A stretch of 64,000 nucleotides of DNA from Candidatus Marinacidobacterium sp. (lineage in GTDB: Bacteria; Acidobacteriota; Vicinamibacteria; Marinacidobacterales; Marinacidobacteraceae), in assembly GCA_965220965.1 (NCBI GenBank), contig OZ244852.1:824621-888620 (forward strand), given 5' to 3'. Positions 5,081 through 64,000 of the stretch are shown one piece after another. Both the position numbers and the translations under genes were made by a program. Every line of letters begins with the position of its first letter. Position 1 is the first letter of the stretch. The notes beneath the pieces were generated by a model that saw only the letters and a program-made list of their open reading frames with translations, was not told where the DNA came from and made no database searches.

Positions 5081-5111
5081 CCCCCCGAGGGAACGCTGGC
5101 CGCGTCGCGCC

Positions 5112-5909: not shown

Positions 5910-5960
5910 TGGCGCGTCCCCCTCTCCCGCAGTTGATCCGTTCGAATCGAAACCTGGCCT

Positions 5961-6135: not shown

Positions 6136-6146
6136 ACGATCTTCCC

Positions 6147-7820: not shown

Positions 7821-7830
7821 GAAACACGCG

Positions 7831-9138: not shown

Positions 9139-9249
9139 AGAGGCTCCGCCGGGGTAGGGGACCCGCCTCGGCAACAGCTTCCCGGGACCGGAAGGGCGGC
9201 AGGGCGTCCGGTACTCTCCGCCGCCGACCCGGCCCCCGGCGGAGCAACG

Positions 9250-32881: not shown

Positions 32882-32929
32882 CGATACGGCCGGAACGCCG
32901 GGGACGCTCGGCCCGGAGGAAGCGCCTCC

Positions 32930-33250
32930 TCAGCCGGCGTCGTATCCCGTGACCCAGCGGTGGTCCACGATGAAGTCGAAGCCGCTTCGCAGCGGCCTCA
33001 GGCCGAGTTCCGCCACGAAGGAGCGGGCGAACGCCGCGCCCAGCACGTCGTCGGCGCCGCCGCGCTTCCCGGCTTCCTCGACGGCCAGGTCGGTGACCTG
33101 CAGCCGCCCTTCGATCGGGCCCGGGTCAGCGTCGGGACCGCTCGCCTGGATGCGGACGGTCCAGGGGTTGTGCTTGTCGTCTTCCGACTTCTCGGCCGGT
33201 GCGGCCTCGCCGCGGTAGGTGAGGCCGCGGCCCTCGAAGCTGAATTCCAT
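32930..33250 (-). CDS. Hypothetical small protein (106 aa)
   Basis: Strong G/C bias at the third codon position in this frame only, ATG start, no recognisable motif. Confidence 0.55.
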   Translation of the reverse strand: MEFSFEGRGLTYRGEAAPAEKSEDDKHNPWTVRIQASGPDADPGPIEGRLQVTDLAVEEAGKRGGADDVLGAAFARSFVAELGLRPLRSGFDFIVDHRWVTGYDAG

Positions 33251-42394: not shown

Positions 42395-42424
42395 CGGGCC
42401 CTGAGCCCGGACAAGGAGATCTCC

Positions 42425-49600: not shown

Positions 49601-50161
49601 CTCGCCGAACGCAAGGAGCCGGGACGCGAGAGCCGGGAGGGGCAGGAGGGCTCGTCCGGGCAGCAGGGTGAGGCGCAATCCGGAGAGGGCCAATCTGGCG
49701 AGGGGCAGTTCGGGGAAGGACAGGCCGGCGAGGGGCAGCCCGGGGAAGCGGCCTCCCGGCAGGCCGATGGGCGCGGTGGAGGCGGCGGCCCCGGCGGATC
49801 CCGCAACGAAGTCCGCCAGCTCCGGAGCGAACTGGACCGCCGGGTCCGCGACGCCGAGGCGCTCCGGCGCGAGATGACCGGCATCGGCGCCTCCGGGGAG
49901 TTCGGCGCCGAGCGGCTGGATCAGGTCGCCGCCGCGCTCAGGGGACTGAACCCGGAGCGGCTCATCGGCGACCCCCGGGGCATGGAGATCCTCGAGGCCG
50001 AAGTCCTCGACACCCTGCGCGAGCTCGAGTTCGACCTGAGGCGGGCGCTCACCGGCGGCGAGGTCGCCGATGTCCTCACCGGGGACGCCGGCCGCGCCCC
50101 CGAGGCCTACCGCGAGATGGTCGAGGAGTACTTCCGCAACCTGAGCCGCAACCCGGGGTAG
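46616..50161 (+). CDS. Very large membrane-anchored coiled-coil protein (DUF4175-like) with low-complexity Gly and GEGQx repeats
   Basis: 1181 aa. Two N-terminal TM helices after RRVRSRWRTRRLLLGGAALAVAG, then VALYVEEHDPTLREAVISGVEL (as in DUF4175 proteins of MoxR/Bat clusters). Long Arg/Glu-rich helical C-half. The family name is from memory only. Confidence 0.6.
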   Translation: METLGLDPTPRSPFEPTPGERYEELIRVIRRVRSRWRTRRLLLGGAALAVAGVVLVGGSSAILEAARYAPWAVRGLAALTWTLLAIAVWRFVARPLRSRVSDRRVALYVEEHDPTLREAVISGVELGKELDHKGGARPGFSPELTRLVVEEAIRRCEEMDAGRNIETGGLRRAAGALATAVGVAFVASILAPSDLWRGVSLLVAPWGDIDDRNPYRVLVEPGDAAIARGSDMWISATLEGFDTERVDLHLQAADGEGWEVLGMTPDPEAGGFRHLLLGVPEATDYFVDADGVRSPTFRIEVEDAPYVARIGVRYEYPAHTGLTPREVEEGGDLVAVGGTRVTLHVESTIPASSGVLRLDPGEEELPLVPVAPDEEAAPAGSRPAMTAELVLRESGAYRISLAGPDGALRTASRDYRIEVLEDLPPIVRFLRPGRDLTSSPVEEVFTEVAAEDDFALDRVEIRLSVNGGEESGFVLASGGARSEVQSGHTIFLEEHDLVPGDLVSYYALARDGAGAESSTDMYFVAVRPFDRTYRQADAMPGGGGGAGGGEGLDGTLTLRQRQIVVATFKVLRDRERMTDAAVSETVATLGLAQGRLREQVGTLNRRLQNRGIGLSPEFGEIVQHLDAGLIEMTAAEESLVGGDPEAALPREQKALTHLQRADAVFRDVQVAFNQGGGGGGGGGAPPQAEDLADLFELEMDKLRNQYETVEQSQRASSDNEVDEILERLAELARRQEQENERLRRGMQAPPGAGGGNGQDQLAAETEDMARRLERLARERSRPDLAAVSRRLREAASEMRAANSRNPGEGLESGMSAASSLRGARRDLDRGRRDRLARDVESAEEEAKRLRSAQDRIRSAVQDLEGERTRQAVDAISEQKEELVERVQDLERRLDEVSRDWSGDEPEAARAVGAAADGIRDRKLKEKIHYSRGVAAQRSTDYADQFEEMIGRDLEALEEDLASARRAVEGSDRAEQDSVLERAESLVRGLEAMRNRLAERKEPGRESREGQEGSSGQQGEAQSGEGQSGEGQFGEGQAGEGQPGEAASRQADGRGGGGGPGGSRNEVRQLRSELDRRVRDAEALRREMTGIGASGEFGAERLDQVAAALRGLNPERLIGDPRGMEILEAEVLDTLRELEFDLRRALTGGEVADVLTGDAGRAPEAYREMVEEYFRNLSRNPG
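49667..49741 (+). repeat. In-frame 15-nt tandem repeat encoding (G-E-G/A-Q-x)x5
   Basis: ggtgaggcgcaatcc ggagagggccaatct ggcgaggggcagttc ggggaaggacaggcc ggcgaggggcagccc = GEAQS GEGQS GEGQF GEGQA GEGQP inside the DUF4175-like CDS. Confidence 0.8.
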
Positions 50162-50440
50162 CCGGCCTGCCCGCGGTTACAGTGCGAGTGCGGAACAAGA
50201 CGGCGACATCGAGCGGCGAGGCGGCGGGAGTCCCACAGAGCCTCCCTTGGTGACGGGTTGGAGGGCGGAGCGCGACGCCATCCAGTCGAACCAGGCTCAG
50301 CTTGCGGTGACTCGGCTCCGTTGTGAGCGACCATCGGACCTCCAGACACTGCGACGGCGTTCCTTTTGTGGTCGTGGGATGCGGGCCGCCTTGGGACACG
50401 ATCTTGACCTCGATGAGTCAGACGAAATGAACTCTCAGCC

Positions 50441-52132
50441 GTGATTCGCGGAGTGTGGAGCGACTTCGGTCGGTGGAAGGATGGTTGGGATGAAATCCAG
50501 ACAGTGGGCGGCGGTGGACAGGGGAACGGTTACCGTGCGCGTCGCCAGTCAGATGGCCGGGAGGCCTTCGTCAAGGTGATCAAGTCCAAGCGCGACGCCG
50601 AGCGTCGGAGACGCTTCTTTCGCGAGGCGACAGCCTATGACACGGTTCGCAGCAGTGGCGTTCCGCGACTGATCGAGAGCAACGCCCATCTCCACGAAGC
50701 CGCAGAGATCGAGCCGTATATCGCGACAGAGTTCATCGAGGGGCCAACGTTGAGAATCTGGCGGGACGGACGGCATGAGGTTGAACTCGCCACCGCCCTA
50801 AGATTGGTCCGGTCTCTCCTCGCGGCGATCGGCGACTGTCACCACGGCGGTGTCGTTCACCGCGACATCAAGCCAGACAACATCATCCTGAGAGGTGGGA
50901 ATCCGTCCCAGCCTGTGCTTCTGGATTTTGGCCTGAGCTTCAAGGTGACGCAGACCAGTGAGGCCGTGACCGAAGACGGGCAGGAAATCGGCAATCGTTT
51001 TCTGCGCTTGCATGAGCTCTCCGCCGGTAGTCAACTTAAGCAGGATCCCCGGTCGGACTTGTCGTTTGCTGGTGGAATCCTGTTCTACTCCCTGACGGGC
51101 AGGAATCCCGACATCCCAGAGGATGCGGAGGGTCGTCTCCCTCACCAACGGAGGGATGTGCGTTCGCAGCTTCGACACATCGCCGGTGAGCGGTTGGAGC
51201 GGTTGCTGTCCATATTCGACAGCGCCTTCGCACCAAGAATCCACGACCGGTTCGTGAACGTCGAGGCAATGGTTGCAAGTCTGGAGAACCTCACGGAATC
51301 GCGGCGTGTTGTGGTGGGCACGTTGGATCATGATCGAGACGCCATCCGTGAGGCGTTGAACACTGCGTCGGCACAGCGGTCATCAGAGAGTCTTGACAGA
51401 CTCACGCACGCTCTCGAAGAGCTGCATCGAGTTGACGATGAAGCAGCGACGTGGTTGGACTGTCCTCTAACTCTGACACGAGGCGGACGGCACGTAGATG
51501 CCGACTTGGGAAGAAACACTGTGTCCTGGCGTAAGCGAGGAATGACCGACGATGTGTTACGAGTACAGCAGGAGGTCCGGGAGGTAGGCGGTGAACTCGT
51601 CATCAAGCTGTCGGGCGAAGCGGTCTGGCGGACGGCGGTGAACGCACCGACGTATGGAGAGTGCTTTGCCGAGAGAATTCGGAGATGGCTGGTCGGGAGA
51701 CTCCGCGAGGCTATCGCGAATCCGGAGGCGCTGCCGCCCGAGGCCAGCTATTTCCAGGAAGAGCCGCCGCTCGGGTCGCTAACGGAAGCGCAGGAGCGAG
51801 CGCGCCGAGAGGACCGCCACGTTCTGGCGTTCGTGTATGACCCGGCGCAGAAGGAGCGCGGCGAACGCGGCAAATTGGAGTGGTGTCTGAGCAACTTCCT
51901 TGAGAACCGCAGGACGCGCGAAACGCTCCGCGCAGCGTTTGTTCTAGCGCTCGTGCCACTGTCTCAAGTAAGTGCGGTCACAGACGAGCTCAGTGGCGAG
52001 TCGATGGAGACTTCACGCTGGGTCGTCTTTGATGCGGACCTCGCACCCAAGCGGCACGAAGTCATCTATGCGAACCCGCAGATGGCGGAGAGTCTCGCCG
52101 GTGAGCTGTCCGACGAGTTCGGTCGCCGATAG
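50441..52132 (+). CDS. Ser/Thr protein kinase domain fused to an uncharacterised ~290-aa C-terminal region
   Basis: GTG start. G-loop GGGGQGNGY, EAFVKVIK (VAIK-like Lys), HRDIKPDNIIL (catalytic loop), DFGLSF (DFG). The C-terminal half has no motif I recognise. The gene is visibly lower in GC than its flanks. Confidence 0.8.
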   Translation: MIRGVWSDFGRWKDGWDEIQTVGGGGQGNGYRARRQSDGREAFVKVIKSKRDAERRRRFFREATAYDTVRSSGVPRLIESNAHLHEAAEIEPYIATEFIEGPTLRIWRDGRHEVELATALRLVRSLLAAIGDCHHGGVVHRDIKPDNIILRGGNPSQPVLLDFGLSFKVTQTSEAVTEDGQEIGNRFLRLHELSAGSQLKQDPRSDLSFAGGILFYSLTGRNPDIPEDAEGRLPHQRRDVRSQLRHIAGERLERLLSIFDSAFAPRIHDRFVNVEAMVASLENLTESRRVVVGTLDHDRDAIREALNTASAQRSSESLDRLTHALEELHRVDDEAATWLDCPLTLTRGGRHVDADLGRNTVSWRKRGMTDDVLRVQQEVREVGGELVIKLSGEAVWRTAVNAPTYGECFAERIRRWLVGRLREAIANPEALPPEASYFQEEPPLGSLTEAQERARREDRHVLAFVYDPAQKERGERGKLEWCLSNFLENRRTRETLRAAFVLALVPLSQVSAVTDELSGESMETSRWVVFDADLAPKRHEVIYANPQMAESLAGELSDEFGRR

Positions 52133-52349
52133 GTCGGTACCAACGGGCCTGGTCCGGCGTCTGCTCGCGATGCCGTCCGCTGCTGTTGGGGTACAGGCCT
52201 CGCTCGAACGATCCCCGACGCCGGGCGGCCCGTGCGATGCGGGGGCTCCATCTCCGTCCGACGCGCAGGCGCAAAGCGCCGCGGATGAGGCACCCGGTCA
52301 CGGGATGTCCCAGACTCGCCTCGGCGGGCTGGCGGCGTCCCGGCCCCCG

Positions 52350-52841
52350 TCAGGACGACGTGTGGTCGTGGGCGATCCGGAGGCCCTCGGGGGTCTTCTC
52401 GAAGAGGAGCGTGAAGAGGCCGGTCGGGGCGTCGGCCTCGCGCTCCAGGTTGTAGCGCCCGAACACGAACACGAACTCCGGCGACAGCACCCGGATGTCG
52501 AGGTCGGAGAAGTGGAGCTGGCCCATGGCGGCCCGGTCGGGGTAGTTGGTCTGGTAGCGCTCGAGCAGATCCGCGGTTCCCATCCGCACCGTGTTGCCCG
52601 AGACGAACCGCATCCGGGGTGAGTCGAGGTAGTCGCTGACGAAGGTCGGCAGGTCCCCCTCGTTCCAGGCCCGGGTCTGGCGTTCGAGCACCTCGCGGAC
52701 TTCGGCGGCGAGGGCGTCGCGCTCCTCGGTCGTGAGCGCGACCCGGGTCGGGGCGGCGGAGGTGGTCTCCGGCGGGGCCGCGCCCGGCCCGGCGCAGGCC
52801 AGCGAGAGCAGCAGGAGCGAGGCGGGAAGAACGTGTCGCAT
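52350..52841 (-). CDS. SnoaL-like / DUF4440 (NTF2-fold) lipoprotein
   Basis: Lipobox LLLLSLACAG. ERQTRAWNEGDLPTFVSDY ... typical NTF2-like pattern. 163 aa. Confidence 0.65.
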   Translation of the reverse strand: MRHVLPASLLLLSLACAGPGAAPPETTSAAPTRVALTTEERDALAAEVREVLERQTRAWNEGDLPTFVSDYLDSPRMRFVSGNTVRMGTADLLERYQTNYPDRAAMGQLHFSDLDIRVLSPEFVFVFGRYNLEREADAPTGLFTLLFEKTPEGLRIAHDHTSS

Positions 52842-52901
52842 CTGGAGAGACTACAGAACCCCCGCGCTACGATTCGTTCCCGGTTCGGGGAGGAGTTTGC
52901 G

Positions 52902-53999
52902 ATGGCGCTTTATGGAAATTCGGGAGGCAACGGGCCGTGGGATCGGTCCGGCGGCTCCCGCCCGGAGGTCCCGGGGCTCCAGGATCTGGAGGCCCTGATC
53001 TCCCGGTTCGGCGGGATGCGCCGGGCGATCGGATGGGGGGCCGGCGGACTCGCCGCGCTCATCCTGTTCTTCGCCTCGGTCTACCAGATCCAGCCCGACG
53101 AGGCCGGGGTCGTCACCCGGTTCGGCCGCTACGTCCGGGTGAGCGATCCGGGGCTCCACTTCATCGTCCCCTTCGTGGAGAACGTCACGAAGGTCCCGGT
53201 GGAGCGGCAGCTCAAGGAGGAGTTCGGCTTCCGCACCGCGGAGGCGGGCGTCCGCACGGTCTACGACCAGCGGAACTTCCTCGAGGAGTCGCTCATGCTG
53301 ACCGGCGACCTGAACGTCGCCGTCGTCGAGTGGATCGTCCAGTTCAAGGTGCAGGACCCCCGGGCCTACCTCTTCAACGTCCGGGACATCCAGTCCACCT
53401 TCCGCGACATGAGCGAGGCGGCGATGCGGGACGTCGTCGGCGACCACAGCGTGGATGAGGTCCTCACCGTCGGACGCGAGCGGATCGCGGCCCAGGCGAA
53501 GGACCTGCTCCAGGACATGAACGACCGCTACGAGACCGGGATCAGCGTCCAGCAGCTCGTGCTTCAGGACGTGAACCCGCCCGACCTCGTGAAGCCTTCC
53601 TTCAACGAAGTGAACGAGGCGATCCAGGAGAAGGAGCGGCTCACCAACGAGGCCCTCGCCGAATACAACCAGGCGATCCCGAGAGCCCGGGGTGACGCCC
53701 AGCGCGTCATCCAGGAGGCCGAGGGATACGCCGCCGAGCGGGTGAACCGCGCCCAGGGCGAGGCCACCCGGTTCGAGGCGATCTACGCCGAGTACCGGAA
53801 CGCGCCGAGGGTGACCCGGTCGCGGATGTACCTCGAGACGCTCTCCGAGGTCATGCCGAAGCTTGGCCAGAAGGTCATCCTCGACGAGAGCGGCGCGAAC
53901 GTGCTCCCGCTCCTGAACCTGACGAACGGACAGTCGCCGGCCCGGCCCAGCGGCTCGTCCGGCGGACCGGGGAACGACCCCGGGGAGGACCGGCGATGA
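52902..53999 (+). CDS. hflK: FtsH protease modulator HflK (SPFH/band-7)
   Basis: ATG at 52902 preceded by GGGGAGGAG. TM helix then YQIQPDEAGVVTRFGRYVRVSDPGLHFIVPF..., and a C-terminal EAEGYAAERVNRAQGEATRF. Followed by hflC with an ATGA overlap. Confidence 0.9.
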   Translation: MALYGNSGGNGPWDRSGGSRPEVPGLQDLEALISRFGGMRRAIGWGAGGLAALILFFASVYQIQPDEAGVVTRFGRYVRVSDPGLHFIVPFVENVTKVPVERQLKEEFGFRTAEAGVRTVYDQRNFLEESLMLTGDLNVAVVEWIVQFKVQDPRAYLFNVRDIQSTFRDMSEAAMRDVVGDHSVDEVLTVGRERIAAQAKDLLQDMNDRYETGISVQQLVLQDVNPPDLVKPSFNEVNEAIQEKERLTNEALAEYNQAIPRARGDAQRVIQEAEGYAAERVNRAQGEATRFEAIYAEYRNAPRVTRSRMYLETLSEVMPKLGQKVILDESGANVLPLLNLTNGQSPARPSGSSGGPGNDPGEDRR

Positions 54000-54934
54000 A
54001 GACGCGCGGCATCACCCTCGCGGGATCGGTCCTCGGACTGGTCCTCCTCTTCGCATCCACCTACACGATCCGGGAGACCGAGCAGGCGATCATCACCCAG
54101 TTCGGCGAGCCGGTCGGCGGAGCGGTGACCGACCCCGGTCTCCACTTCAAGCTCCCCTTCATCCACACGGTGACCCGCTTCGACCAGCGCTGGCTGCCGT
54201 GGGACGGGGACGCGAACCAGATCACCACCCGCGACAAGAAGTTCATCTGGGTGGACACCTACGCCCGCTGGCGGATCTCGGACCCGCTGCTCTTCTTCCA
54301 GTCGGTGCGCGACGAACGCGGCGCGCAGAGCCGTCTCGACGACATCATCGACGGGGAGACCCGGAACGCGGTCGCGACCTACGACCTGATCGAGATCGTC
54401 CGGATCACGAACCGGGACTTCGAGATCACCGAGGACCTGGTCTCGTTCGCGAGCGAGGGCGAGGAGCCGGTGGGCGAGATTGAGTTCGGCAGGAACGCCA
54501 TCACCCGCAGCATCCTCGAGAAGGCGTCCGAGGTGACGCCCAGCTTCGGGATCGAGCTGGTGGATGTGCGGATCAAGCGCGTGAACTACGTCGAGGAGGT
54601 CCGCGCCAAGGTCTACGAGCGGATGATCTCCGAGCGCCAGCGGATCGCCGAGCGGAGCCGTTCCGAAGGGCAGGGAAGGGCCGCCGAGATCCGGGGCCAG
54701 CGCGAGCGCGAGCTCAAGTCGATCGAGTCGGAGGCGTTCCGGCAGGCCGAGGAGGTCCGCGGCCGCGCCGACGCCGAGGCCTCCGCGATCTACGCCAGCG
54801 CCTACCAGCGGGACGCCGACTTCTACCGCTTCATGAAGTCGCTCGAGACCTACCGGTCGGCGCTCGATGAGGGCGTGACGCTCGTCATCGGCAGCGACAG
54901 CGAGTTCCTCGACTTCCTCCGGCGTTCCCGCTAA
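53996..54934 (+). CDS. hflC: FtsH protease modulator HflC (SPFH/band-7)
   Basis: TM helix then YTIRETEQAIITQFGEPVGGAVTDPGLHFKLPFIHTV..., RAAEIRGQRERE..., YRFMKSLETY. Confidence 0.9.
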   Translation: MKTRGITLAGSVLGLVLLFASTYTIRETEQAIITQFGEPVGGAVTDPGLHFKLPFIHTVTRFDQRWLPWDGDANQITTRDKKFIWVDTYARWRISDPLLFFQSVRDERGAQSRLDDIIDGETRNAVATYDLIEIVRITNRDFEITEDLVSFASEGEEPVGEIEFGRNAITRSILEKASEVTPSFGIELVDVRIKRVNYVEEVRAKVYERMISERQRIAERSRSEGQGRAAEIRGQRERELKSIESEAFRQAEEVRGRADAEASAIYASAYQRDADFYRFMKSLETYRSALDEGVTLVIGSDSEFLDFLRRSR

Positions 54935-54947
54935 GCGGGCCGGGGCG

Positions 54948-55787
54948 GTGAGCCGGGACGATCGGATCGTCCTGCTCACCGCTCCGGACGACCCGGAGTT
55001 CGAAGCCTGGGCCGAGGGGCTGCTCGGCCCCGCCGACCGCGCCCGCGCCGCAAGGCGGCGGCATCCGGTGGGGCGTCGCCGGACGGTGATCTCGAGGGGT
55101 CTTCTGCGCGTGCTGGCGGGGGAGCTTCTGGGGGTCGAACCTTCCGACGTCTGGACCGGGACGAGCCCGGGCGGGGCGCCCCAGGCGGGGGAGGCGGAGC
55201 CCGAAGGAGGGAGGCCCCCACGGCGCCTCGGCATCAGCATCGCCCACACCGTCTCCACCGTTGTGGTGGCGGCGAGCTTCTCGGAGCGCCGCCTGGGAGT
55301 GGATGTCGAGCTCCTCGACCGGCGCACCCGCCCCGAGGCGCTCGCCCGCCGCTACTACGCCCCGGGAGAGGCGGAAGAGCTCGAAGCGCTTCCCGCGCCG
55401 CGTCGTCCGGCGGCGTTCCTCCGCGCCTGGACGCTCAAGGAGGCGTGGGGGAAGGCGGCCGGCGTCGGGGTCCCGCGCGCCCTACCGCTCGTGGGGTTCT
55501 CGATGGGCGAGCTCGCCGGTTCGCGGGCGCTCACCGCGCGGAGGCTCCACTTCGTCGACCCGGCGGCGGCTTCGCGCGCGGGCGACGGGTGGCGGTTCTG
55601 GACGGTCGCGGCGGGGACCGCCTCCTTCGGCGTGGTGGCCGGTGAGATCTCCCGGGAGCCCACCGATGGGGAGCGGCCGTTGCCCCTTTTCGCCGGTTCC
55701 GCCATGATTGAACGGTTCGACAGCGGCTGGCCGGACCCCTCCGGCGCGCCGGTCGAAGTCTTCCGGATGGTTTCGCCTCCCCCCTGA
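54948..55787 (+). CDS. 4'-phosphopantetheinyl transferase (Sfp-type)
   Basis: ISIAHTVSTVVVAAS, GVDVELL (Mg-binding) and FLRAWTLKEAWGKAAGVG (WxxKEAxxK) motifs. Confidence 0.75.
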   Translation: MSRDDRIVLLTAPDDPEFEAWAEGLLGPADRARAARRRHPVGRRRTVISRGLLRVLAGELLGVEPSDVWTGTSPGGAPQAGEAEPEGGRPPRRLGISIAHTVSTVVVAASFSERRLGVDVELLDRRTRPEALARRYYAPGEAEELEALPAPRRPAAFLRAWTLKEAWGKAAGVGVPRALPLVGFSMGELAGSRALTARRLHFVDPAAASRAGDGWRFWTVAAGTASFGVVAGEISREPTDGERPLPLFAGSAMIERFDSGWPDPSGAPVEVFRMVSPPP

Positions 55788-55816
55788 ACTCCCGCTACCG
55801 GGAAAGGACCCACTTC

Positions 55817-58408
55817 ATGTCGCAGCTTCGCCGTTTCCGGTTCCGGGTCGCGCTCCTCGCCGTCGCTTCTCTGCTGGTCGCCGGGTTGGCCGGCGCGCAG
55901 GACGCGCCGCCGGCCATCCCGTCGATCGCGGACAAGACCTCCGGCATGACAGCGATCGACGGCTTCGTCCCGCTCCACTGGGACGAACGCACCGGGAAGA
56001 TCTACGCCGAGCTGGGTCCGATGGAGGAGGAGTTCCTCTACCAGGTCTCGGCCGGTTCGGGCCTCGGCAGCAACCCGGTCGGTCTGGACCGCGGCCAGTT
56101 GAGCATGACGGCGGTGCTCCGTCCGATGCGGATCGGGCCGCGGGTGCTCCTCATGGAGCCCAACTACCGGTTCCGCGCGATCAGCGACAACCCCGACGAG
56201 GTCCGCGCCGTCCGCGATGCGTTCGCGCCCTCGGTGCACTGGGGATTCCAGGTGGAGGCCGAGACCGGAGACCGGGTCCTGGTGGACATGACCGACTTCT
56301 TCCTGCGCGACACCCACGGCGCCATCGCCCGGCTGGCCCGCGCCCGGCAGGGGACCTACCGGCTCGACCGCGACCGCAGCGCCTTCTACCTGGAGAACAC
56401 CAAGGGCTTCCCCGACAACACCGAGGTCGAGACCCTGCTCACGTTCACTTCGGACAATCCGGGACCGCTCGTCCAGGCGACGGCCGCCAGCGGGGAAGCG
56501 GTGACGCTGCGCCAGCACCACTCGCTCGTCCGCCTTCCCGGCCCCGGCTTCGAAATGCGCATCGCCGACCCGAGGATCGGCGTGAACGGCCCGCAGTACA
56601 TGGACTACGCGACCGCGATCGACGAGCCGATGACCGTCCGGCTCACCGCCCGGCACCGCCTCGAGAAGCGCGATCCCTCGGCGGAGCGTTCCGAGGTGGT
56701 CGAGCCGATCGTCTACTACCTCGACCGGGGCGCTCCCGAGCCGATCCGGAGCGCGCTCCTCGAGGGGGCCCGCTGGTGGAACGAGGCGTTCGAGGCGGCC
56801 GGCTTCATCGACGGCTACCGGGTCGAGGTCCTTCCGGAAGGCGCCGACGCCCAGGACGTCCGCTACAACATGATCCACTGGACGCACCGGCGAACTCGCG
56901 GCTGGTCCTATGGCGGTTCGGTCCAGGACCCGCGCACCGGGGAGATCATCAAGGGGAACGTGAACCTCGGGAGCCTGCGGCTGCGGCAGGACCACCTCCT
57001 CGGGGTCGGCATGGTCGCGCCGTATGTCGGGGGCTCGGGCGCCGCGCCGGCCGGCCACGACCACGGGATGCACGGCCTTCCGCCGGACCCCGGCGGCCCG
57101 CACTCCTGCGGCCTCTCCGCGACGCCGGGATTCGGGTATCTGGCGCAGATCAGCCCGGACGCCGACCCGGTGGAGCTGGCGCTGGCCCGCGTGCGGCAGC
57201 TCTCCGCCCATGAGGTGGGCCACACGCTGGGATTCCCGCACAACTACATGTCGTCCACCTACGACGGCCGCGCCAGTGTCATGGACTATCCGGCGCCGCT
57301 GGCGACGCTGGAAGACGACGGGACGGTCTCGCTGAGCGACGCCTACGGCGTCGGCGTGGGCTCCTACGACATCCTCTCGGTCCGCTGGGCCTACGCCCAC
57401 GTCCCGCCCGCCGAGACTGCGGCCACGCTCGACCGGATCATGCAGGAAGGGCTCATGGCGGAGACCCGGTTCATGGCCCACACCGACAACTACATCGGGG
57501 CGGGCGCGCACCCGCTGGCCTCCGTCTGGGACAACGGCGGCGATCTGGTCCGCCACCTCGGCCGCGAGATCGACATCCGGCAGGCGGGTCTGGACGCCTT
57601 CGGCGAGCGCGTGATCCGGGTGGGCGAACCGATGTCACGGCTCGAGCCGGTTCTGATGCCGCTCTATCTCCACCACCGCTTCCAGATGAAGGCGGCGATG
57701 AACACCATCGGCGGGCAGGAGTACTACTACGCGGTCCGGGGCGACGGGCAACGCCCGGTGAACGCCGTCCCCGGCGACCGCCAGCGCGAAGCCCTTGACA
57801 CCGTCCTGAGGACGCTCGACACGAGCTTCCTGGCCCTTCCGAGGCGCATCGTCGAGATGATCCCCCCGCCTGCCTACCGGGAGCGGGGAACGGAGACCTT
57901 CGACGGGCACACCGGCGTCGTCTTCGACCCGCTGGCGGCGGCGGACACTTCCGCCGACTACACCGTCGAGCTGCTGCTCCACCCCGAGCGGATGGCGCGG
58001 CTGGTGAACAACCACGCGCTCGACCCGGACCAGCCCGGACTGAGCGAGGTCCTCGACCGGCTCACAGAGGCCACCTGGGGAGAGGACGAGCCGGATGACA
58101 CCTACCACCGCGCCGTCCAGGACGCCGCCGAGCGCAGCGTGCTGAACGGGATGATGCGGGAAGCGCTGAACCCGGACAACCCGGCGCGCGTTCGCGCCGT
58201 CATCGAGGACCGGCTCGTCGCCCTCGGAGAGAGCCTGGGCGAGATGGACGACCGCAGCCCGCACGAGGAGCTGGCGTGGATGGACATCGACCGCTTCCTC
58301 GACCGGGACGACAGTCTCGACCCCAACGCCCGCCGTCCGGCCCTCCCGCCGGGCTCCCCCATCGGCGGCGCCTCGGCGTCAGGGGAGCGCATCCACCCGG
58401 GCCACTGA
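55817..58408 (+). CDS. Secreted zinc-dependent metalloprotease (DUF5117/DUF4953-type)
   Basis: Signal peptide. DGFVPLHWDERTGKIYAEL N-terminal block. Zinc site SAHEVGHTLGFPHNYMSS...SVMDYP. 863 aa. Confidence 0.8.
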   Translation: MSQLRRFRFRVALLAVASLLVAGLAGAQDAPPAIPSIADKTSGMTAIDGFVPLHWDERTGKIYAELGPMEEEFLYQVSAGSGLGSNPVGLDRGQLSMTAVLRPMRIGPRVLLMEPNYRFRAISDNPDEVRAVRDAFAPSVHWGFQVEAETGDRVLVDMTDFFLRDTHGAIARLARARQGTYRLDRDRSAFYLENTKGFPDNTEVETLLTFTSDNPGPLVQATAASGEAVTLRQHHSLVRLPGPGFEMRIADPRIGVNGPQYMDYATAIDEPMTVRLTARHRLEKRDPSAERSEVVEPIVYYLDRGAPEPIRSALLEGARWWNEAFEAAGFIDGYRVEVLPEGADAQDVRYNMIHWTHRRTRGWSYGGSVQDPRTGEIIKGNVNLGSLRLRQDHLLGVGMVAPYVGGSGAAPAGHDHGMHGLPPDPGGPHSCGLSATPGFGYLAQISPDADPVELALARVRQLSAHEVGHTLGFPHNYMSSTYDGRASVMDYPAPLATLEDDGTVSLSDAYGVGVGSYDILSVRWAYAHVPPAETAATLDRIMQEGLMAETRFMAHTDNYIGAGAHPLASVWDNGGDLVRHLGREIDIRQAGLDAFGERVIRVGEPMSRLEPVLMPLYLHHRFQMKAAMNTIGGQEYYYAVRGDGQRPVNAVPGDRQREALDTVLRTLDTSFLALPRRIVEMIPPPAYRERGTETFDGHTGVVFDPLAAADTSADYTVELLLHPERMARLVNNHALDPDQPGLSEVLDRLTEATWGEDEPDDTYHRAVQDAAERSVLNGMMREALNPDNPARVRAVIEDRLVALGESLGEMDDRSPHEELAWMDIDRFLDRDDSLDPNARRPALPPGSPIGGASASGERIHPGH

Positions 58409-58422
58409 GCGGCTCACGGGAC

Positions 58423-58446
58423 CTCCCGGAGCCAAGACTCCGGGAG
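58423..58446. terminator. Perfect 9-bp hairpin between convergent genes (bidirectional terminator candidate)
   Basis: CTCCCGGAG (58423-58431), loop CCAAGA, CTCCGGGAG (58438-58446), followed by TT. It sits between the metalloprotease stop (58408) and the helicase stop (58482). Confidence 0.55.
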
Positions 58447-58481
58447 TTCCGCTCCGCGGTCAGAGGTTCAGGTCCGCCCAC

Positions 58482-61400
58482 CTATCCGCGGGATAGCGCC
58501 TGTTCGATCTCATTCAGGGCGAATTTGCGGTTCAGGTGTGGGTGCAGCCACTGATTCCGATAACTCCTGAGGCACCCATAGCAGCTCGCGTCGCAACCGC
58601 AGTCGCCGCGCACACGCGTTCGCGCAAGTTCCAGCACGAGGCGGAAACTCTCCCTGTTGGTGAGTTGGCCTACGAGTCCAGCGCCGCCAGGAACATCGTC
58701 GTAGAGAACCACTCCGTCCACGGTAAGGGTGACGTTCAGGTCGCGTTCGGGGACGGCAACGGCATCGGCAGCTCCATGGAGAAGCGCGTACCCGAGCGAA
58801 TACCGAACCCACTTCTGGCGCCCCGGCAGCTCAACCTTGACCACATCTGTGACAAGCTCGTGACCCAACGCGTAGCTGGAGAAGGTACCTCGGCAGGGAC
58901 GCCCGTCCGCTGTCTTGTGGCCGCGCGCCCGTGGGTTCGCGTCGTGTAGTCCGCAGTCCTCGCACAGCAAGAAGTTGCGCTGACCCTGACCCTCACAGAG
59001 AACCACTAACCTGCCTGGCAGAGCCTCTGCGACATCGAGCCCGAAGAGTCTCTTCTTGTGGGCCTTGCGCGCCCCAGCGGAATACCCCTGGAAGAACGGC
59101 TTCGTCGTATACTGACGGCGCGGTCGGCGCACCGGAGGGCGTGGGTCGGTCTGGAGGTCGGTAGTAAAGCCCCAACGTGGGACGAGATAGCGACCTGAGT
59201 ACTGTGCACCTTCCTCCTTCTCCGCGTCATTTGAGGATTCGAAGGCGCCCTCCTCGTTCCAGAAGTACCAGCGGACGGTGGGAGCCTGCCCCTCGACCCT
59301 CCGAATACCCACAGACTTCCACTCCAGCTTGTCGGCGACTACGCTGCTCCCAGGCGCGTATTCGGCAAGCGCGAGTGAGAGATCACGGTCGAGCTCTATG
59401 TTCTGGCCATTCTTGGTCGCTCCCGTTTGCAGCTCGACCACATCCACCGGAAATCCGTATTTTGGGATGATGGCGTGTCGCGCCAGAAACGAAATCGCCA
59501 TCTCCCGCTCCATCGCGTTCAATCGGTCCTCCAACCGATAGCGCCTCCTTCGTTCAGTGCGAGTGGCATTCAGATCCGCCAGGATCCGTTCGATCTGAAG
59601 ATACTCGGCGCACCGATCGGCGACGGCGCGGGCGAGTCTGCTCTCGCTCCCGGTAAGCCGTCGAACCCATTTCTGTCCATCGACCCCGACGCTCTCCCGC
59701 AGCGTCGCCGGAACGACGTCGTGCAGGACTCGCGGCAGCGCGTCGTCGTTGCGGCAGAACTCGCCGAAAGCATCACACACATCGGGGTGTCGCCAGTCCT
59801 CGCCAATGAAATCCTTGACTCGTCCGGCGCGAATACGATGCGCCGGCTGCCGGAAGAAGTGTGATAGGGCGACCGCGGTCATGTGCCTTTGGACGATCTG
59901 AGGATTTGTCAGGCGAAGGATCGGCGGTCGGACCCGACCAGAGATCATCTCCTGCTGATGTCGGAAGTAGTGGAGGTCATGGGAGTTGCGGCGACAGTAG
60001 GTGACGGCAAGACCTGCCTTCCCCCGCCGGCCGGCGCGGCCGACTCGTTGTGTGTAGTTGAACGGTTCGGGTGGCACGTTACGAAGAAACGTCAGGCGAA
60101 GATCACCGAGGTCGACACCGACTTCGAACGTAGTGGACGAACTGAGCAGGTGCACCCGATCCCGCTGAAAATCGCGCTGGACGCTGCGCGCTTCCTCCGG
60201 AGTCAACTGCGCTGTGTGTTCGGCCGTTCTGAAGTCTGCTGGAAGGTCCGATGCGAGGTAGAGGCGTCGGTAGTGGTTGTCCTCGTGCGTGCTCTTCACC
60301 CGACCGAGTCGTCCCGTGCAGCGAGGACGGGGACAGAGGCCGCGAAGGGCTATGGCAGTGACCCGGTCGCACCTACGACACCGCCAGAGGTCGGATGACG
60401 AGGCCGGACGGACACGGAGCCACTCGGCGCGCAGCCGGAAGCCGTTAGTCCTGCGATCGATGGACAGGAGAGCGGCGCTGGACGAGCGTCGCGACTGAGC
60501 GACGAGGTGATCCCAGACACGAACCATCACATCTTGGGCGGCGAACACGGGGTCCGTCTCACCATTGACTAGTTTGGGAAGATAGTCGCGAACAAGGCCG
60601 CCCTGCGGTGAGCCCCACTGGCGCAGATGACGGCGTCCGTGCGGACGATCTTGGCTGAAGGCGAGTTGGGGCCTCTCTGGCTTTATGACGGACCACGTGG
60701 GCAGATCCGGATCGGTGGAGGGCAGCTCCACCGCGTCGTTTCTGAGGAACTCGGCGAGCAGCAATTGCAGGAGCGCACTGGCCTCCGCCGGGTTCAACCG
60801 CCAGGGAGTCTCCTGGAACACTGGCGGGAGATTCATGCCCGGAGGCAGTGCGACATGCCAGCGGCAGAGGCCGACCCCCGCCAGCGACAGCCGCGTGTCA
60901 TCGGTCACGGCTTCACGAAGCACTGCCGCATAGGCATCTCTGTAGCGCTGTGCTCCAGTCTCCGACGGTGCGTGAACCCCCAGCTCCGACCGGACTCTCT
61001 CGAGTCTCTGCGCGAGATCGGCCACGGACAACTCGCAGTGACTCGCGCCACGCGGTGAAGCCTTCTGTCGAAGGGCGCGGAGCAACAGGTTGCGCGTGAG
61101 CAGAGTCCGGTAGGAGTCCTCCGCATACCAAGCAAAGAAAGCTGCGTCCTGTCGGCTATCCGCGAAGGCAAGGATCTTCTTCTCATCCTCGGGAAGAAAC
61201 CGGTGCATGGCCGTAGCCAGAACGGCGTTGGGGGCGTCGGCGCCGTGGACGATCGCCTGAACGGGATCGCCAACGCCACCTCGGCTGTAGCTACAGACCG
61301 CGCACCTCTTCAGTTGATCCCGGTACTCCGGTTGCTGTCGGTTCTCACTCCGTTCAACACGGATCGCCGCTCCACAGCGGCACGTCAGCTCGTCGCTCAG

Positions 61401-62738
61401 CGCACCGCAGATACGGCAGAGCAGAAGGGAACCCTCCTCGGCGGGCAGGTAGAACTCGACCCCGAACTCCTCGCGCGACGGATCCCGGCAGGCTTCCAGG
61501 AGGAACCCTCCGGTACGGCGGCCAACGTAGTAGTGCTGGCCACACTCGCGGCACAGCGCTATCTCGATATAGGCCGACTTGCCAGCCTCATCCCCGACAT
61601 GACCGCGGTTCAGCGTGACCCGGTCCTGCCCATGATGGTGATGCAGGAAAGCGCCTTCAAGCGCCCTTGCAAACACGTGGTAGCGACGTACGTGCGCACT
61701 CGTCCTGGCCCGTGTAGTGTCCTCCTGACCGAAGATCACGCACTCGGGAGCGAAGGGCTCACCGAACAGGGCACTCGCAAATCGAGCCACGGATGCCCGA
61801 GCATCGGCATCGTGTGTCGACGCGATGGTGGCGCTCGTGGCGACGCATCGAAATGACCCCGACCGGCCGCCTCGCCGCAGTCGATTCGTGAGACGGCGCA
61901 GCAGCATCGCCATCTCGATCCCCCTTGCACCGCGATACATGTGCGCCTCGTCGAGGACCAGAAACCGCCAGTGAGCGGCCCGGCCGGCATCGAACAAAGG
62001 GCTGTCATCCGGCCGGAGGAGCAGATGCTCGAGCATCGAGTAGTTGGTAAACAGAAGGTGCGGCGGCCGCGCCCGCATATCCTCGCGGAATACTGTTTCG
62101 CCGGGGAGCGCGCTCTCAGCGCGCGCGCGACCGTGCCGGCGTCGGTCTCTGATGTTCTCCGGTGTCTGCCCGATGTACTGTCCAAAGGAGAATCGGAAGT
62201 CGGAGCGGTCCGCAGCGAGGTTGCCGCAGAGCGCGCCGATCCGCTCGCGCTGGTCGTTGACCAGGGCGTTCATGGGATAGAGAACGAGGGCGCGGACGCC
62301 GGGGTCGCCCAGCGTGCCGGCCAGGTGTTCTCCGTAGAGGGAGAACAGAATGGGATAAAGGAAGCACTCGGTCTTCCCGCTGGCTGTGCCGCTCGCCACG
62401 GCGATGTTGGACTGTGCGAACGCGCTCTGTCGAATGGCCTCCTCCTGATGTGCATAGAGCGCGCCGGAGTGCAGAGCAGGTAAGAGCGCGCCTGCCCGGC
62501 CAGGAAACGCCGCCTCGGCGAGAGCGGGAGCCTCGACCCCGAGCCGAAAATACCGGCCGTATTCCGGAACAGGTTCGGTGACCAGTGTGCCCTCGGCTTC
62601 GAGCGCGGTGCGGAAGGACTCGCGTAGTTGGGGATCTCGGAAATGGAAAGATGTTGTGAGGTACCTGAGGTAGCTCGAACGCAGACGTCGGACCCACCCG
62701 GCGATCTCCGCGTCGGAATGGGGTTGGGTGACGCTCAT
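58482..62738 (-). CDS. Large SF2 DEAD/DEAH-box helicase with C-terminal DUF1998/MZB zinc-binding domain (YprA-MrfA / DrmAB / DruE-like)
   Basis: ATG at 62738. Motif I VASGTASGKT (62370-62399), motif II DEAH (61941-61952), TSATI, motif VI QRVGRAGRRG. C-terminal GDCGCDASCYGCLRSYRNQ (about 58567-58611) is the DUF1998 4-Cys cluster. Extra CxxC pairs lie between the RecA lobes. The first 126 codons of the ORF-track entry overlap the upstream gene out of frame. Confidence 0.85.
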   Translation of the reverse strand: MSVTQPHSDAEIAGWVRRLRSSYLRYLTTSFHFRDPQLRESFRTALEAEGTLVTEPVPEYGRYFRLGVEAPALAEAAFPGRAGALLPALHSGALYAHQEEAIRQSAFAQSNIAVASGTASGKTECFLYPILFSLYGEHLAGTLGDPGVRALVLYPMNALVNDQRERIGALCGNLAADRSDFRFSFGQYIGQTPENIRDRRRHGRARAESALPGETVFREDMRARPPHLLFTNYSMLEHLLLRPDDSPLFDAGRAAHWRFLVLDEAHMYRGARGIEMAMLLRRLTNRLRRGGRSGSFRCVATSATIASTHDADARASVARFASALFGEPFAPECVIFGQEDTTRARTSAHVRRYHVFARALEGAFLHHHHGQDRVTLNRGHVGDEAGKSAYIEIALCRECGQHYYVGRRTGGFLLEACRDPSREEFGVEFYLPAEEGSLLLCRICGALSDELTCRCGAAIRVERSENRQQPEYRDQLKRCAVCSYSRGGVGDPVQAIVHGADAPNAVLATAMHRFLPEDEKKILAFADSRQDAAFFAWYAEDSYRTLLTRNLLLRALRQKASPRGASHCELSVADLAQRLERVRSELGVHAPSETGAQRYRDAYAAVLREAVTDDTRLSLAGVGLCRWHVALPPGMNLPPVFQETPWRLNPAEASALLQLLLAEFLRNDAVELPSTDPDLPTWSVIKPERPQLAFSQDRPHGRRHLRQWGSPQGGLVRDYLPKLVNGETDPVFAAQDVMVRVWDHLVAQSRRSSSAALLSIDRRTNGFRLRAEWLRVRPASSSDLWRCRRCDRVTAIALRGLCPRPRCTGRLGRVKSTHEDNHYRRLYLASDLPADFRTAEHTAQLTPEEARSVQRDFQRDRVHLLSSSTTFEVGVDLGDLRLTFLRNVPPEPFNYTQRVGRAGRRGKAGLAVTYCRRNSHDLHYFRHQQEMISGRVRPPILRLTNPQIVQRHMTAVALSHFFRQPAHRIRAGRVKDFIGEDWRHPDVCDAFGEFCRNDDALPRVLHDVVPATLRESVGVDGQKWVRRLTGSESRLARAVADRCAEYLQIERILADLNATRTERRRRYRLEDRLNAMEREMAISFLARHAIIPKYGFPVDVVELQTGATKNGQNIELDRDLSLALAEYAPGSSVVADKLEWKSVGIRRVEGQAPTVRWYFWNEEGAFESSNDAEKEEGAQYSGRYLVPRWGFTTDLQTDPRPPVRRPRRQYTTKPFFQGYSAGARKAHKKRLFGLDVAEALPGRLVVLCEGQGQRNFLLCEDCGLHDANPRARGHKTADGRPCRGTFSSYALGHELVTDVVKVELPGRQKWVRYSLGYALLHGAADAVAVPERDLNVTLTVDGVVLYDDVPGGAGLVGQLTNRESFRLVLELARTRVRGDCGCDASCYGCLRSYRNQWLHPHLNRKFALNEIEQALSRG

Positions 62739-62787
62739 CGATCCGTGGCGCGGAGCATCCGATCGCAGACCCGGGTCCAGGCGTGCC

Positions 62788-64000
62788 TCATCGGGACGTG
62801 AGGGCCCGAAGGGCCGCGACGGCGGCGTTGACGACGTGGGCGCGGGACCCGATGGAACGAACGCGAATGCTTCGGATGCCTGCGGTCTCCAAGAGCGCCC
62901 GTAGACGGCCACGGGCGTGAACGCCCGAGTCGGCGCTCGCGGGCCGCAGCAGAAGGCGCGAGGAGCCATAGGCGCCAACCGTGGCGCGCGGAATGGTGTT
63001 GTGGGAGATCGGGACGACGAACAGGGCGCGTCGAGCCCGATGCTCGGCCCGGGCACATGCTCTTCGAGGTGTGCTCTCGCATGCGCGTCCGACGCCGAGT
63101 CGGCCGTTGCGATCACCCACGGCTACGAGCGCCACGAATCGTCGGTGTCGAGGCGCTACGGCCCGCCGTGAGAGCGGTCGGAGCGTGAGAAGGCGAGGGG
63201 TCAGCGCCGGTGGAGATTGGGAGGGGGACGGGTGGGAAGGAAGTTCGAGGAGGAGTGCCGGCAGAGTGTGCGAGCCAGCCCGTAGCCTGAGTTCCCCGGA
63301 CGCTGGCTCGGATTGGACAGAGAGGAGGTCGGCGAAAGAGCCCAGCGGAATCGAGACGGCCGTCTTGTGCGGAAACTGGGCAGCAAGGCCACTGTCGGCC
63401 TCGTGGCGGTAGCGTCCGGGCTGACCGTCAGCGAAGGCCGCCTCGATCGTCCGCTCCGTGGGTGGCGCCAGAACCTCCAGTGCGGCGTGTCGCCGATAGG
63501 TTCGGCGAAGCGGTCGTCGCTCCCAGCAGGAGTCACCCGCCATCCGCCACCAGAGGCGCGGCAGATCCAGGACAATCGGGAGGCTGTCGTCGCCGTCGCG
63601 CAGTTCAAGGCGCACCCGATCGGTCTTGGGGGAGTACGGCACCCGCGCCTCTCGAGTGCGAACGGCCACATCGCGCGTGCCGGTGTTGAGCTGCAGCGAC
63701 CGACCATGGCTGTCTTCGATCGTGATGTAGTCCTCGTCGCGGTCGTCTGGCAAGAGGAGTCGGAGACCCTCGAATGGCAGTCCGTTCACCAGAATCCTCT
63801 TGAGGCCTGGCCAGTAGCGGAACGTGGTCGTGTCGGCGAGATGAGTGTGGCCGCTCTGATACGTGCGAAGAAAGAACTCGCCGCGCCTGTTCCCAATGCG
63901 CACGGGTGTTGGCTGCTCTGTGAGTTCGAAGTTCTTGCCCTTCCACGGTTCGTCGGCTGGCCCCGCGTGGCGCCCGGCGGCGCGGGGGTGCTCCTCTCCG
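62788..64000 (-). CDS. Unknown protein (5' end beyond window) with C-terminal ribosomal-protein-S5-homology domain
   Basis: The frame stays open to nt 64000 (no stop upstream of the GTG at 63903). The last ~135 aa (62791..63195) align end-to-end with bacterial S5: RRFVALVAVGDRNGRLGVGRA.., NTIPRATVGAYGSSRLLLRPASADSGVHARGRLRALLETAGIRSI, IGSRAHVVNAAVAALRAL. The N-terminal >=260 aa are unrecognised. Confidence 0.75.
   Translation of the reverse strand, partial: GEEHPRAAGRHAGPADEPWKGKNFELTEQPTPVRIGNRRGEFFLRTYQSGHTHLADTTTFRYWPGLKRILVNGLPFEGLRLLLPDDRDEDYITIEDSHGRSLQLNTGTRDVAVRTREARVPYSPKTDRVRLELRDGDDSLPIVLDLPRLWWRMAGDSCWERRPLRRTYRRHAALEVLAPPTERTIEAAFADGQPGRYRHEADSGLAAQFPHKTAVSIPLGSFADLLSVQSEPASGELRLRAGSHTLPALLLELPSHPSPSQSPPALTPRLLTLRPLSRRAVAPRHRRFVALVAVGDRNGRLGVGRACESTPRRACARAEHRARRALFVVPISHNTIPRATVGAYGSSRLLLRPASADSGVHARGRLRALLETAGIRSIRVRSIGSRAHVVNAAVAALRALTSR

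Follow-up and report, generated by a model that had tools for sequence, protein, structure and literature searches.

Introduction

Few anti-phage systems are as widespread as Druantia, whose mechanism is still under study. To our knowledge, mechanistic work on the system has so far been confined to the DruH-DruE pair. The subject of this report is a 64,000-nt stretch of DNA from Candidatus Marinacidobacterium sp. (contig OZ244852.1, positions 824,621 to 888,620; the whole stretch is called the window and is numbered from its first nucleotide), in which positions 58409-64000 form a block of lowered GC content. The block is probably the window's share of an acquired two-gene anti-phage operon of about 6.9 kb that combines a compact DruE helicase with a large partner protein other than DruH, the two serving, by analogy, as effector and sensor.

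In the DruH-DruE pair, DruE unwinds double-stranded DNA bearing a 3′ overhang, and in DruH six Ig-like subdomains lie between a globular N-terminal and a C-terminal domain, with single-stranded DNA (ssDNA) bound between Ig5 and the latter (10.64898/2026.05.12.722862). DruH belongs to the YjiT family and is a likely sensor of infection (PMC13192584). Type III-B Druantia is distinguished by a compact DruE without PLD domains (10.64898/2026.05.13.724758); for the III-B representative GIH50614.1, the supplement to the YprA survey annotates the domains of DruE only (PMC12458937).

The locus described here is closest to Druantia III-B, with which it shares a two-gene operon with the partner directly upstream, a DruE of ~1400-1670 aa with the same domains and no PLD, and defence-island-like, horizontally mobile contexts. 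It would differ from III-B in a partner of 849 aa that is not detectably DruH and has a ribosomal-protein end. Type III-A, of Escherichia coli and Marinobacter, has a helicase of the same family (PDB 9tu7, 2108 aa, E = 2.7e-65; PADLOC DruE3, 7e-135), the same gene order and a partner rich in FN3/Ig-like beta-sandwich domains, the C-terminal region of DruH being the part that binds ssDNA. Unlike the III-A enzyme of ~2100 aa, the DruE here lacks the last ~380 profile positions, which hold two PLD-like nuclease domains; its partner has no sequence or profile similarity to DruH, and begins with a disordered N-terminus of 250 aa where DruH has a globular N-terminal domain.

More distant comparisons are with MrfA/YprA, DISARM and the ribosome. 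MrfA/YprA has the same superfamily 2 (SF2) DEXH core and C-terminal MZB/DUF1998 zinc module, but YprA is ~750 aa long, lacks the large RecA1-RecA2 insertions, is paired with the MrfB exonuclease, and gives a much weaker match (E 1.4e-18, vs 1e-143 for DruE). DISARM contains a related YprA-family helicase core in DrmA/DrmB and has DUF1998 in the system; its helicase and DUF1998 are on separate proteins, however, and it includes a methyltransferase and a PLD protein, none of which is found here, and the DrmA match is weak (E 2e-17). The tail of the partner spans both domains of ribosomal protein uS5 (rpsE), residues 12-146 of 167. Unlike uS5, it makes up the C-terminal end (aa 715-847) of a fusion protein of 849 aa that is encoded in a defence operon and not in a ribosomal one, and several conserved positions are substituted (for example GKA.EV to RACEST).

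A compositional island beside the Met-zincin gene

The GC content is 71.4% over the whole window and 72.6% over positions 1-50000, and drops to 64.6% over positions 58409-64000 (63.5% in the helicase gene, 67.3% in the partner gene). Through the junction, 500-nt windows in succession give 0.718 (58001-58500), 0.668 and 0.624 (58501-59000). The maximum-likelihood GC change point, tested within 55000-62000, is position 58460 (2*deltaLL = 59), with 71.8% GC to its left and 63.2% to its right. It falls within the 73-nt convergent spacer (58409..58481, no strand) that runs from the stop codon of a Met-zincin gene to that of the helicase gene and forms the left boundary of the island, and it is 14 nt past a hairpin, CTCCCGGAG-CCAAGA-CTCCGGGAG (58423-58446), whose 9-bp stem is evident from sequence and fold. 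The hairpin region folds with -38.2 kcal/mol over 81 nt (z -2.6). A U-tract is absent at this hairpin and a scan for intrinsic terminators gave no call there, so it can be termed only a putative terminator.

An earlier account of this DNA, made from the letters of the window and here called the sequence-only reading, had described a sharp GC fall at this convergent junction with its boundary at the hairpin. The fall and its position stand, since the change point is in the same 73-nt spacer; the magnitude was overstated. The figures of ~55% and ~73% GC are correct for the lines from which they were taken (55% and 56.7% for those starting at 59401 and 60541, and 73.3% for that starting at 40021), but the two low ones are extremes. 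Lines of 60 nt average 64.4 +/- 5.3% GC within the region vs 72.6 +/- 5.8% elsewhere, and the implied contrast of 18 points is in fact one of about 8 (64.6% vs 72.6%).

Codon usage also sets the block apart. Third-position GC (GC3) was referred to 32 core genes (0.909 +/- 0.029, minimum 0.848), the order GC3 > GC1 > GC2 having been used to tell real genes in a high-GC genome. The helicase gene, at 0.72 (z -6.5), and the partner gene, at 0.745 (z -5.6), bear out the claim that third positions in the block are less G/C-saturated. The flanking genes on both sides are host-like (0.87-0.96), and the outliers here are exactly these two genes. Relative to the 1-50 kb background, the L1 distance of tetranucleotides rises to z = 11.4, and GC-normalised tetranucleotide usage also deviates within the block (z -3.5 to -4.8); therefore the anomaly exceeds a plain effect of GC content. 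Both tetranucleotide measures are at background again by ~66 kb. Analysis of GC, GC3 and tetranucleotides, which the sequence-only reading had proposed as a check in sliding windows, finds a clear deviation relative to the 32 core genes and the 1-50 kb background.

The right boundary had been placed beyond the window, correctly. A public locus (L001) identical to window positions 48482-64000 (0 mismatches in 15519 nt) extends the coordinates to 72738. The window holds only the last 1213 nt of the partner gene (62788..64000, minus strand; aa 447-849), and the gene continues for 1337 nt beyond it. Its GC3 is low in each of three parts (0.74, 0.76, 0.70); therefore the right boundary at gene level is its start codon at 65337. 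The island ends at ~65.3-66.1 kb, next to a higB'/higA pair in decay and a TonB receptor gene of host-like GC3, and its size is ~6.9 kb for the two genes (58482-65337) or at most ~7.7 kb with the higB'/higA remnant.

The helicase is a compact DruE

The helicase gene (58482-62738, minus strand) encodes 1418 aa and is separated from the upstream partner gene (62788-65337, minus strand, 849 aa) by an intra-operon spacer of 49 nt (62739-62787, minus strand) that was read from the sequence, from the partner stop codon to the helicase ATG. The start codon was picked in frame, 49 nt past the partner stop, and public gene calls have the same 1418-aa product, which is recorded exactly on two contigs, one of 50 kb (ENA) and one of 2.88 Mb (NCBI). 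On the minus strand, Pfam places a DEAD domain at 61815-62453 (2e-17), Helicase_C at 60021-60239 (3e-10) and an MZB/DUF1998 (MrfA) zinc module at 58569-58793 (6e-10), which together make up the large YprA-family SF2 helicase by which a Druantia DruE is recognised. The best PADLOC match is DruE1 (1.3e-143, 478 bits), followed by DruE3 and by DruE2 (4e-124); DpdJ, DrmA and BrxH score 1e-20 or worse. In the PDB, the DruE-type helicase structures 9tu7 and 9wae (1.2e-49) come first, and the repair helicase YprA (6znp) is far behind (1.4e-18, 69 bits).

Motif I (GTASGKT, aa 117-123) and motif II (DEAH, aa 263-266) are intact, as is the cysteine cluster of MZB, and the enzyme is apparently active. 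An inactive helicase had been considered when the Walker-A pattern G.GK[ST] gave nothing, an idea dropped on the YprA-type variant GTASGKT. The C-terminus is 28 aa past MZB and alignment to the DruE3 profile halts at position 1676 of 2055; the protein is therefore without the two PLD-like nuclease domains of III-A, and no PLD or nuclease domain is found in it by Pfam. Judged by these profile matches, the protein is a compact YprA/MrfA-family SF2 DruE, the signature helicase of Druantia, and it fits the 'compact DruE' of the III-B or type III-like branch (PMC12458937, 10.64898/2026.05.13.724758).

The partner protein and its exchanged tails

The N-terminal part of the partner (aa 1-253), which is encoded beyond the window, is disordered and has a high content of Pro, Arg, Ala and Ser; its predicted local distance difference test score (pLDDT) is <50. 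A conserved all-beta FN3/Ig-like core follows (aa 254-697, 63247-64578); its AlphaFold2 model (aa 260-700) is all-beta with pLDDT 85-97. The C-terminal tail, on the minus strand, consists of a Ribosomal_S5 N-terminal (dsRBD-like) domain (aa 715-776, 63010..63195; Pfam PF00333, 4.8e-09) and a Ribosomal_S5_C domain (aa 788-847, 62797..62976; PF03719, 7e-11). Against bacterial uS5 (PDB 7nhn), residues 12-146 of 167 are aligned with E 2e-22, and the tail scores 86 bits with NCBIfam rpsE_bact (TIGR01021), for which the cut-off is 164; it is therefore a complete but divergent S5 module and not a ribosomal gene. The AlphaFold2 model of the tail is poor (pLDDT <55) because most rows of the alignment bear other tails, and sequence evidence was used instead.

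An exhaustive profile search with the core alone retrieved 838 representative clusters (50% identity), 375 of them at E<=1e-30. The notion of an extremely rare family, which arose when word-indexed searches gave three proteins both for the whole partner and for its first 714 aa, was discarded as a search artefact. In all seven loci examined (L001, L002, L003, L005, L086, L087 and L089), the partner is directly upstream of a DEAD/Helicase_C/MZB helicase, which is 1406-1418 aa long in six of the seven; that of L002 ends at a contig edge. The two genes co-vary, the helicases of the two nearest cassettes being 57% and 49% identical to the one described here and their partners 32-35% and 29-31%. 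Neighbours in the other loci include HigB/Phd toxin-antitoxin, SNF2/NOV_C helicase, CD-NTase, AAA/PDDEXK and Schlafen-AlbA genes.

The consensus end of the family is an Ig-like domain followed by the motif 'GKGFS..EL..AGL ... D.RRRS.H..N'. An L13e-type motif is present in 110 of 150 sampled members (~73%), and the only matches of the family profile in the PDB are eL13 chains (best 6.5e-09); an eL13-like domain is not otherwise known from bacterial ribosomes. Tails were surveyed by Pfam in 58 sampled members, a sample that by choice includes all non-consensus tails. Ribosomal_L13e was found in 18 of the 58, Ribosomal_S5_C in five, Ribosomal_S5 and NusA-like KH_5 in three each, Ribosomal_S6 (best E 6.6e-25) and TrcR in two each, and DUF4389, MacB_PCD and PIN in one each. 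Several further tails (P0040, P0062, P0064, P0048, P0156, P0021, P0101, P0124, P0128, P0020 and P0085) have no Pfam match at E<=0.001, some resembling winged-helix or HARE-HTH-type domains by eye, and the repertoire is broader than the six Pfam-confirmed types.

On a tree of the core alone (neighbour-joining, a rough distance tree without support values), KH tails form one clade and S6 tails group with one other protein in a clade of three. TrcR tails and some of the Pfam-unassigned tails are nested inside L13e clades, and S5 tails occur in two places, four beside the KH clade and one among L13e-tailed members. Judged by this tree, tail replacement is therefore recurrent. No report linking L13e, eL13 or S5 to Druantia or to defence systems was found in the searchable literature.

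Relationship of the partner to DruH

As in type III Druantia, the partner gene is immediately upstream of druE on the same strand, with a 49-nt spacer, and the compact DruE without PLD of type III-B is present in the cassette; the C-terminal PLD-like nuclease domains of III-A are not. The cassette might then be an ordinary Druantia III-B whose partner is a very divergent DruH of the YjiT/STY4851/ECs_5259 family, which would make it a further example of a known system. We consider this unlikely, on several grounds. The partner has no PADLOC match even at E<=1, and none of the 58 family members matches any PADLOC model, DruH included, at E<=0.01. The positive control was a true DruH from a Marinobacter plasmid (L091), where this STY4851/ECs_5259 family protein is encoded upstream of a helicase of 2088 aa; it matches 11 PADLOC DruH models with a best E = 0, and hhalign of the 58-member family profile against it returns a probability of 0.2%. 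The partner is 849 aa long vs 1117-1132 aa for DruH, and DruH is reportedly without annotated domains, whereas the partner family carries L13e, S5, S6 or KH tails. The FN3/Ig folds common to both are too widespread to indicate homology.

The partner thus occupies the operon position of DruH and shares its general fold class, with homology to DruH undetectable by profile comparison, and the module is classed from its gene content as a predicted Druantia type III-like system with a non-DruH partner. A point on the other side is that the published III-B 'DruH' may belong to the same family as this partner, in which case the system would already be named.

A compact DruE with a different neighbour was also seen on the Clostridium butyricum plasmid pNPD4_2 (L090, 2723-10608). 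There the 1559-aa DruE (PADLOC DruE1, 6e-177) is preceded by a 1069-aa hypothetical protein that matches neither PADLOC DruH nor the partner family (hhalign 0.2%) and that may represent a third partner family for compact DruE.

Proposed function

By analogy with DruH-DruE, the partner would be an infection sensor or adaptor and DruE the effector. The beta-sandwich array of the partner may recognise proteins, and its small nucleic-acid-binding tail may hold RNA or ssDNA, like the ssDNA-binding C-terminal region of E. coli DruH. Intermediates of phage replication or recombination that expose ssDNA or 3′ overhangs would serve DruE as loading sites, and it would unwind them 3′ to 5′ using ATP. As this DruE is without a nuclease, the phage DNA would have to be destroyed by the partner or by host nucleases, for example RecBCD. 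Two considerations temper this proposal. Phage defence by the cassette is itself a prediction from sequence, the literature searched having yielded no published test of the partner family, and the putative sensor role of the partner is drawn from operon position and fold class, when FN3/Ig domains are ubiquitous and no homology to DruH was detected.

In the simplest reading, the tails are interchangeable small modules that bind RNA or ssDNA. A bolder one, which we hold to be rather doubtful, is that they are captured copies of host proteins (eL13-like, uS5, bS6, NusA-KH, TrcR) that act as decoys or baits, the partner family being a class of Druantia sensor not yet recognised. The tail would then be engaged by phage factors able to bind or modify ribosomal proteins or NusA, and this would license DruE; alternatively, the sensor would be docked by its tail on ribosomes or nascent RNA, with the same outcome for DruE.

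The same features could be read as a housekeeping module, either a repair helicase of the YprA/MrfA type or a ribosome-associated RNA helicase recruited to the 30S subunit by S5. The MZB domain does take its name from the repair helicase MrfA, YprA (6znp) is a detectable relative, and the S5, S6, L13e and NusA-KH tails derive from the translation and transcription machinery. Such a role is nonetheless very improbable, as the DruE match (478 bits, 1e-143) far exceeds that to YprA (69 bits), the S5 tail scores under the rpsE cut-off, the distribution is patchy and the composition foreign, and the neighbours in other loci are the toxin-antitoxin, SNF2/NOV_C, CD-NTase, AAA/PDDEXK and Schlafen-AlbA genes listed above. 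An anti-phage operon remains the preferred interpretation.

Horizontal acquisition of the module

With the Met-zincin protein (55817-58408, plus strand, host-like) as query, 80 loci were collected from species-representative genomes, the closest being metagenome-assembled genomes (MAGs) of Vicinamibacteria/Acidobacteriota in which this protein is 76-89% identical. About 25 relatives share the left-flank order DUF4175-DUF4440-Band7-Band7-(PPTase)-Met-zincin. At or near the locus, all of these lack helicase, partner and HigA genes as well as the PD-T4-6 kinase described below. The finding of the same genes at this position in all relatives, named by the sequence-only reading as the result that would speak against acquisition, was not obtained; the cassette is present in 0 of ~25. 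The same two-gene module occurs elsewhere in unrelated genomic contexts, and in three of them its GC3 is lower than that of its neighbours: 0.61/0.67 vs 0.83-0.92 in L005, 0.71/0.71 vs 0.78-0.88 in L086, and 0.57/0.63 vs 0.63-0.83 in L089, where an adjacent SNF2/NOV_C gene is equally low (0.63). Anti-phage defence modules are moreover a gene class with rapid horizontal turnover. Horizontal acquisition of the helicase/S5-fusion module, as first proposed from composition, is supported by four independent kinds of evidence: composition, synteny, unrelated contexts and defence gene class.

Several findings weigh against this interpretation or complicate it. Of the usual marks of an island, deviating composition and absence from the syntenic locus are both observed, and mobility hallmarks are not. 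The window contains no tRNA, the gene calls between 48.5 and 72.7 kb include neither integrase nor transposase, and att-like direct or inverted repeats round the cassette amount to short imperfect matches at chance level. The sequence-only reading had likewise seen no integrase, transposase or tRNA at the left boundary, and the inspection it suggested beyond 64000 revealed neither an integrase nor convincing flanking repeats. A search of plasmids with the helicase found no close relative (best 34% identity over 48% of the protein), and there is therefore no evidence of a plasmid vector.

The DNA after the Met-zincin gene differs in every relative examined, so that no simple empty site can be defined. 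In many relatives of ~80% identity, Met-zincin is followed by a convergent TrkA-like gene (501 aa) and then by a conserved minus-strand block. In L007, the nearest complete relative (88% identity), it is followed by genes of host-like GC3 for a CitMHS transporter, an outer-membrane receptor, a spermidine-synthase/TPR protein and RimK. When the right-flank genes were compared with the 80 loci by tblastn and tblastx, the sole match was to the last 38 aa of the TonB receptor, again in L007; the 3′ end of this receptor gene is ~9.9 kb from Met-zincin, in the same orientation, and is 76% identical to the one here. The right flank is conserved in L007 only, and the slot there is occupied by other genes, which were not found in other relatives or in the window. 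The flanking genes are thus ~9.9 kb apart in L007 with ordinary genes of host-like GC3 between them, and because the slot is filled, replacement or rearrangement is possible instead of simple insertion.

A toxin-antitoxin remnant adds to the uncertainty at the right edge. Beyond the partner gene and 387 nt of non-coding DNA (65338-65724, extended coordinates), a helix-turn-helix (HTH) gene (65725-66036, plus strand) encodes a protein with 75% identity to HigA of L087, where the antitoxin gene follows a HigB-like toxin gene in an intact pair next to the homologous cassette. HigA is intact at the present locus, and HigB is reduced to a 21-aa C-terminal remnant, its last 21 codons (WSAMFRLDDGEATDVDLINQH*, 65645-65710), with a stop 14 nt before higA. 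With only these higB codons left, the accessory segment is thus at most ~7.7 kb and comprises the cassette and a decayed toxin-antitoxin pair. A role for the HTH gene as cassette regulator was considered and dropped; a toxin-antitoxin remnant is more likely than a dedicated regulator. This higA is absent from all relatives' loci compared, and the pair may have travelled with the cassette; its GC3, however, is host-like (0.885), so that arrival together with the cassette is uncertain.

Two accounts that dispense with acquisition can be set against these data. According to the first, the genes are native: long and seldom used, both would owe their low GC3 to weak expression or to relaxed selection on codons. 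In favour of this account, integrase, tRNA and flanking repeats are absent, and GC1 and GC2 of both genes are near host values. It is highly improbable given that GC3 is 5.6-6.5 standard deviations under the 32 core genes, among which genes of >1000 aa reach 0.91-0.94, that GC-normalised tetranucleotide usage deviates as well, that the cassette is missing from the ~25 relatives with a shared left flank, and that homologous cassettes in unrelated contexts are again compositional outliers. The second, a chimeric MAG join that imported another organism's DNA, might be raised because the source is a metagenomic assembly whose contig name suggests ~4.3x coverage, but it is scarcely credible with host-like genes on both sides of the block in one contig, a 76%-identical, same-orientation counterpart of the right-flank TonB receptor ~10 kb from Met-zincin in L007, and the same proteins on both the 50-kb ENA contig and the 2.88-Mb NCBI contig.

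With acquisition as the favoured account, and since integrase, tRNA and repeats are absent, the likeliest route of entry would be recombination into the variable, defence-prone convergent junction at the 3′ end of Met-zincin. In L018 (Met-zincin 80% identical), a different low-GC block (GC 0.57-0.67; L018 12566-19447) is found at the same junction and encodes a type II DNA methyltransferase (PADLOC 2.5e-60), a HATPase_c_3 ATPase, a Methyltransf_35 protein and an HTH/Peptidase_M78 RmrA-like regulator. Given this block and the variation among relatives, the 3′ end of Met-zincin is therefore a variable junction with foreign defence-type DNA in at least two lineages, which suggests a recurrent hotspot for the integration of defence genes.

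Other features of the window and of related loci

On the right flank, the TonB-dependent receptor gene (66106-68520, minus strand; GC3 0.92) is followed by COXG, beta-lactamase-family, FmdA and VWA genes (68567-72434; GC3 0.91-0.96).

A second, equally strong dip at 50.3-52.1 kb was overlooked by the sequence-only reading. This low-GC island (GC 0.59-0.62, GC3 0.688, z -7.5, tetranucleotide z 8.8; change points 50280 and 52075) consists of one gene (50441-52132, plus strand), whose product is the anti-phage Ser/Thr kinase PD-T4-6 at full length (PADLOC PDLC04063, E 7e-196, aa 4-560 of 563 aligned). In the public annotation of the contig, the open reading frame is broken into a 196-aa fragment and a spurious 71-aa gene. 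In relatives, the slot between DUF4175 and DUF4440 in which the kinase gene is located measures 0.03-1.7 kb, and the kinase is in none. Milder dips (GC 0.65-0.69) occur at 5001-7000, 32001-33000 and 42001-43000; the genes there keep a host-like GC3 of 0.85-0.94, and these dips therefore reflect amino-acid or intergenic composition and are not islands.

Two of the compared loci have further genes near Met-zincin. L007 has a low-GC3 gene of its own (0.76) between the PPTase and Met-zincin genes (7191-9488, plus strand), whose 765-aa product matches nothing in Pfam or PADLOC and recurs in none of the other loci. A Longimicrobiales (Gemmatimonadota) MAG (L051, 3-4115, minus strand) encodes a distant YprA/DruE-like helicase, 29-32% identical to the one here, ~6 kb upstream of a Met-zincin homologue; the proximity is probably coincidental, though it places a further helicase of defence type close to this core gene.

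Implications

Compositional islands that carry defence genes are routine, and such genes often arrive by horizontal transfer. What is new here, as far as profile matches can tell, is the combination of a DruE chassis with a different, large partner family of 838 clusters that is absent from PADLOC 2.0 and for which no description was found in the searchable literature. A practical point is that a second low-GC defence gene of the window, that of the PD-T4-6 kinase, escaped the contig gene caller in its full length.

The conserved core with its exchanged tails is a natural domain-swap series bearing on what Druantia-type sensors recognise, and it raises the testable idea that some bacterial immune sensors bear host-protein decoys. 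If the decoy reading were true, tail swaps on the conserved core would record an arms race over the host component that phages attack, comparable to the integrated decoys of plant NLR receptors.

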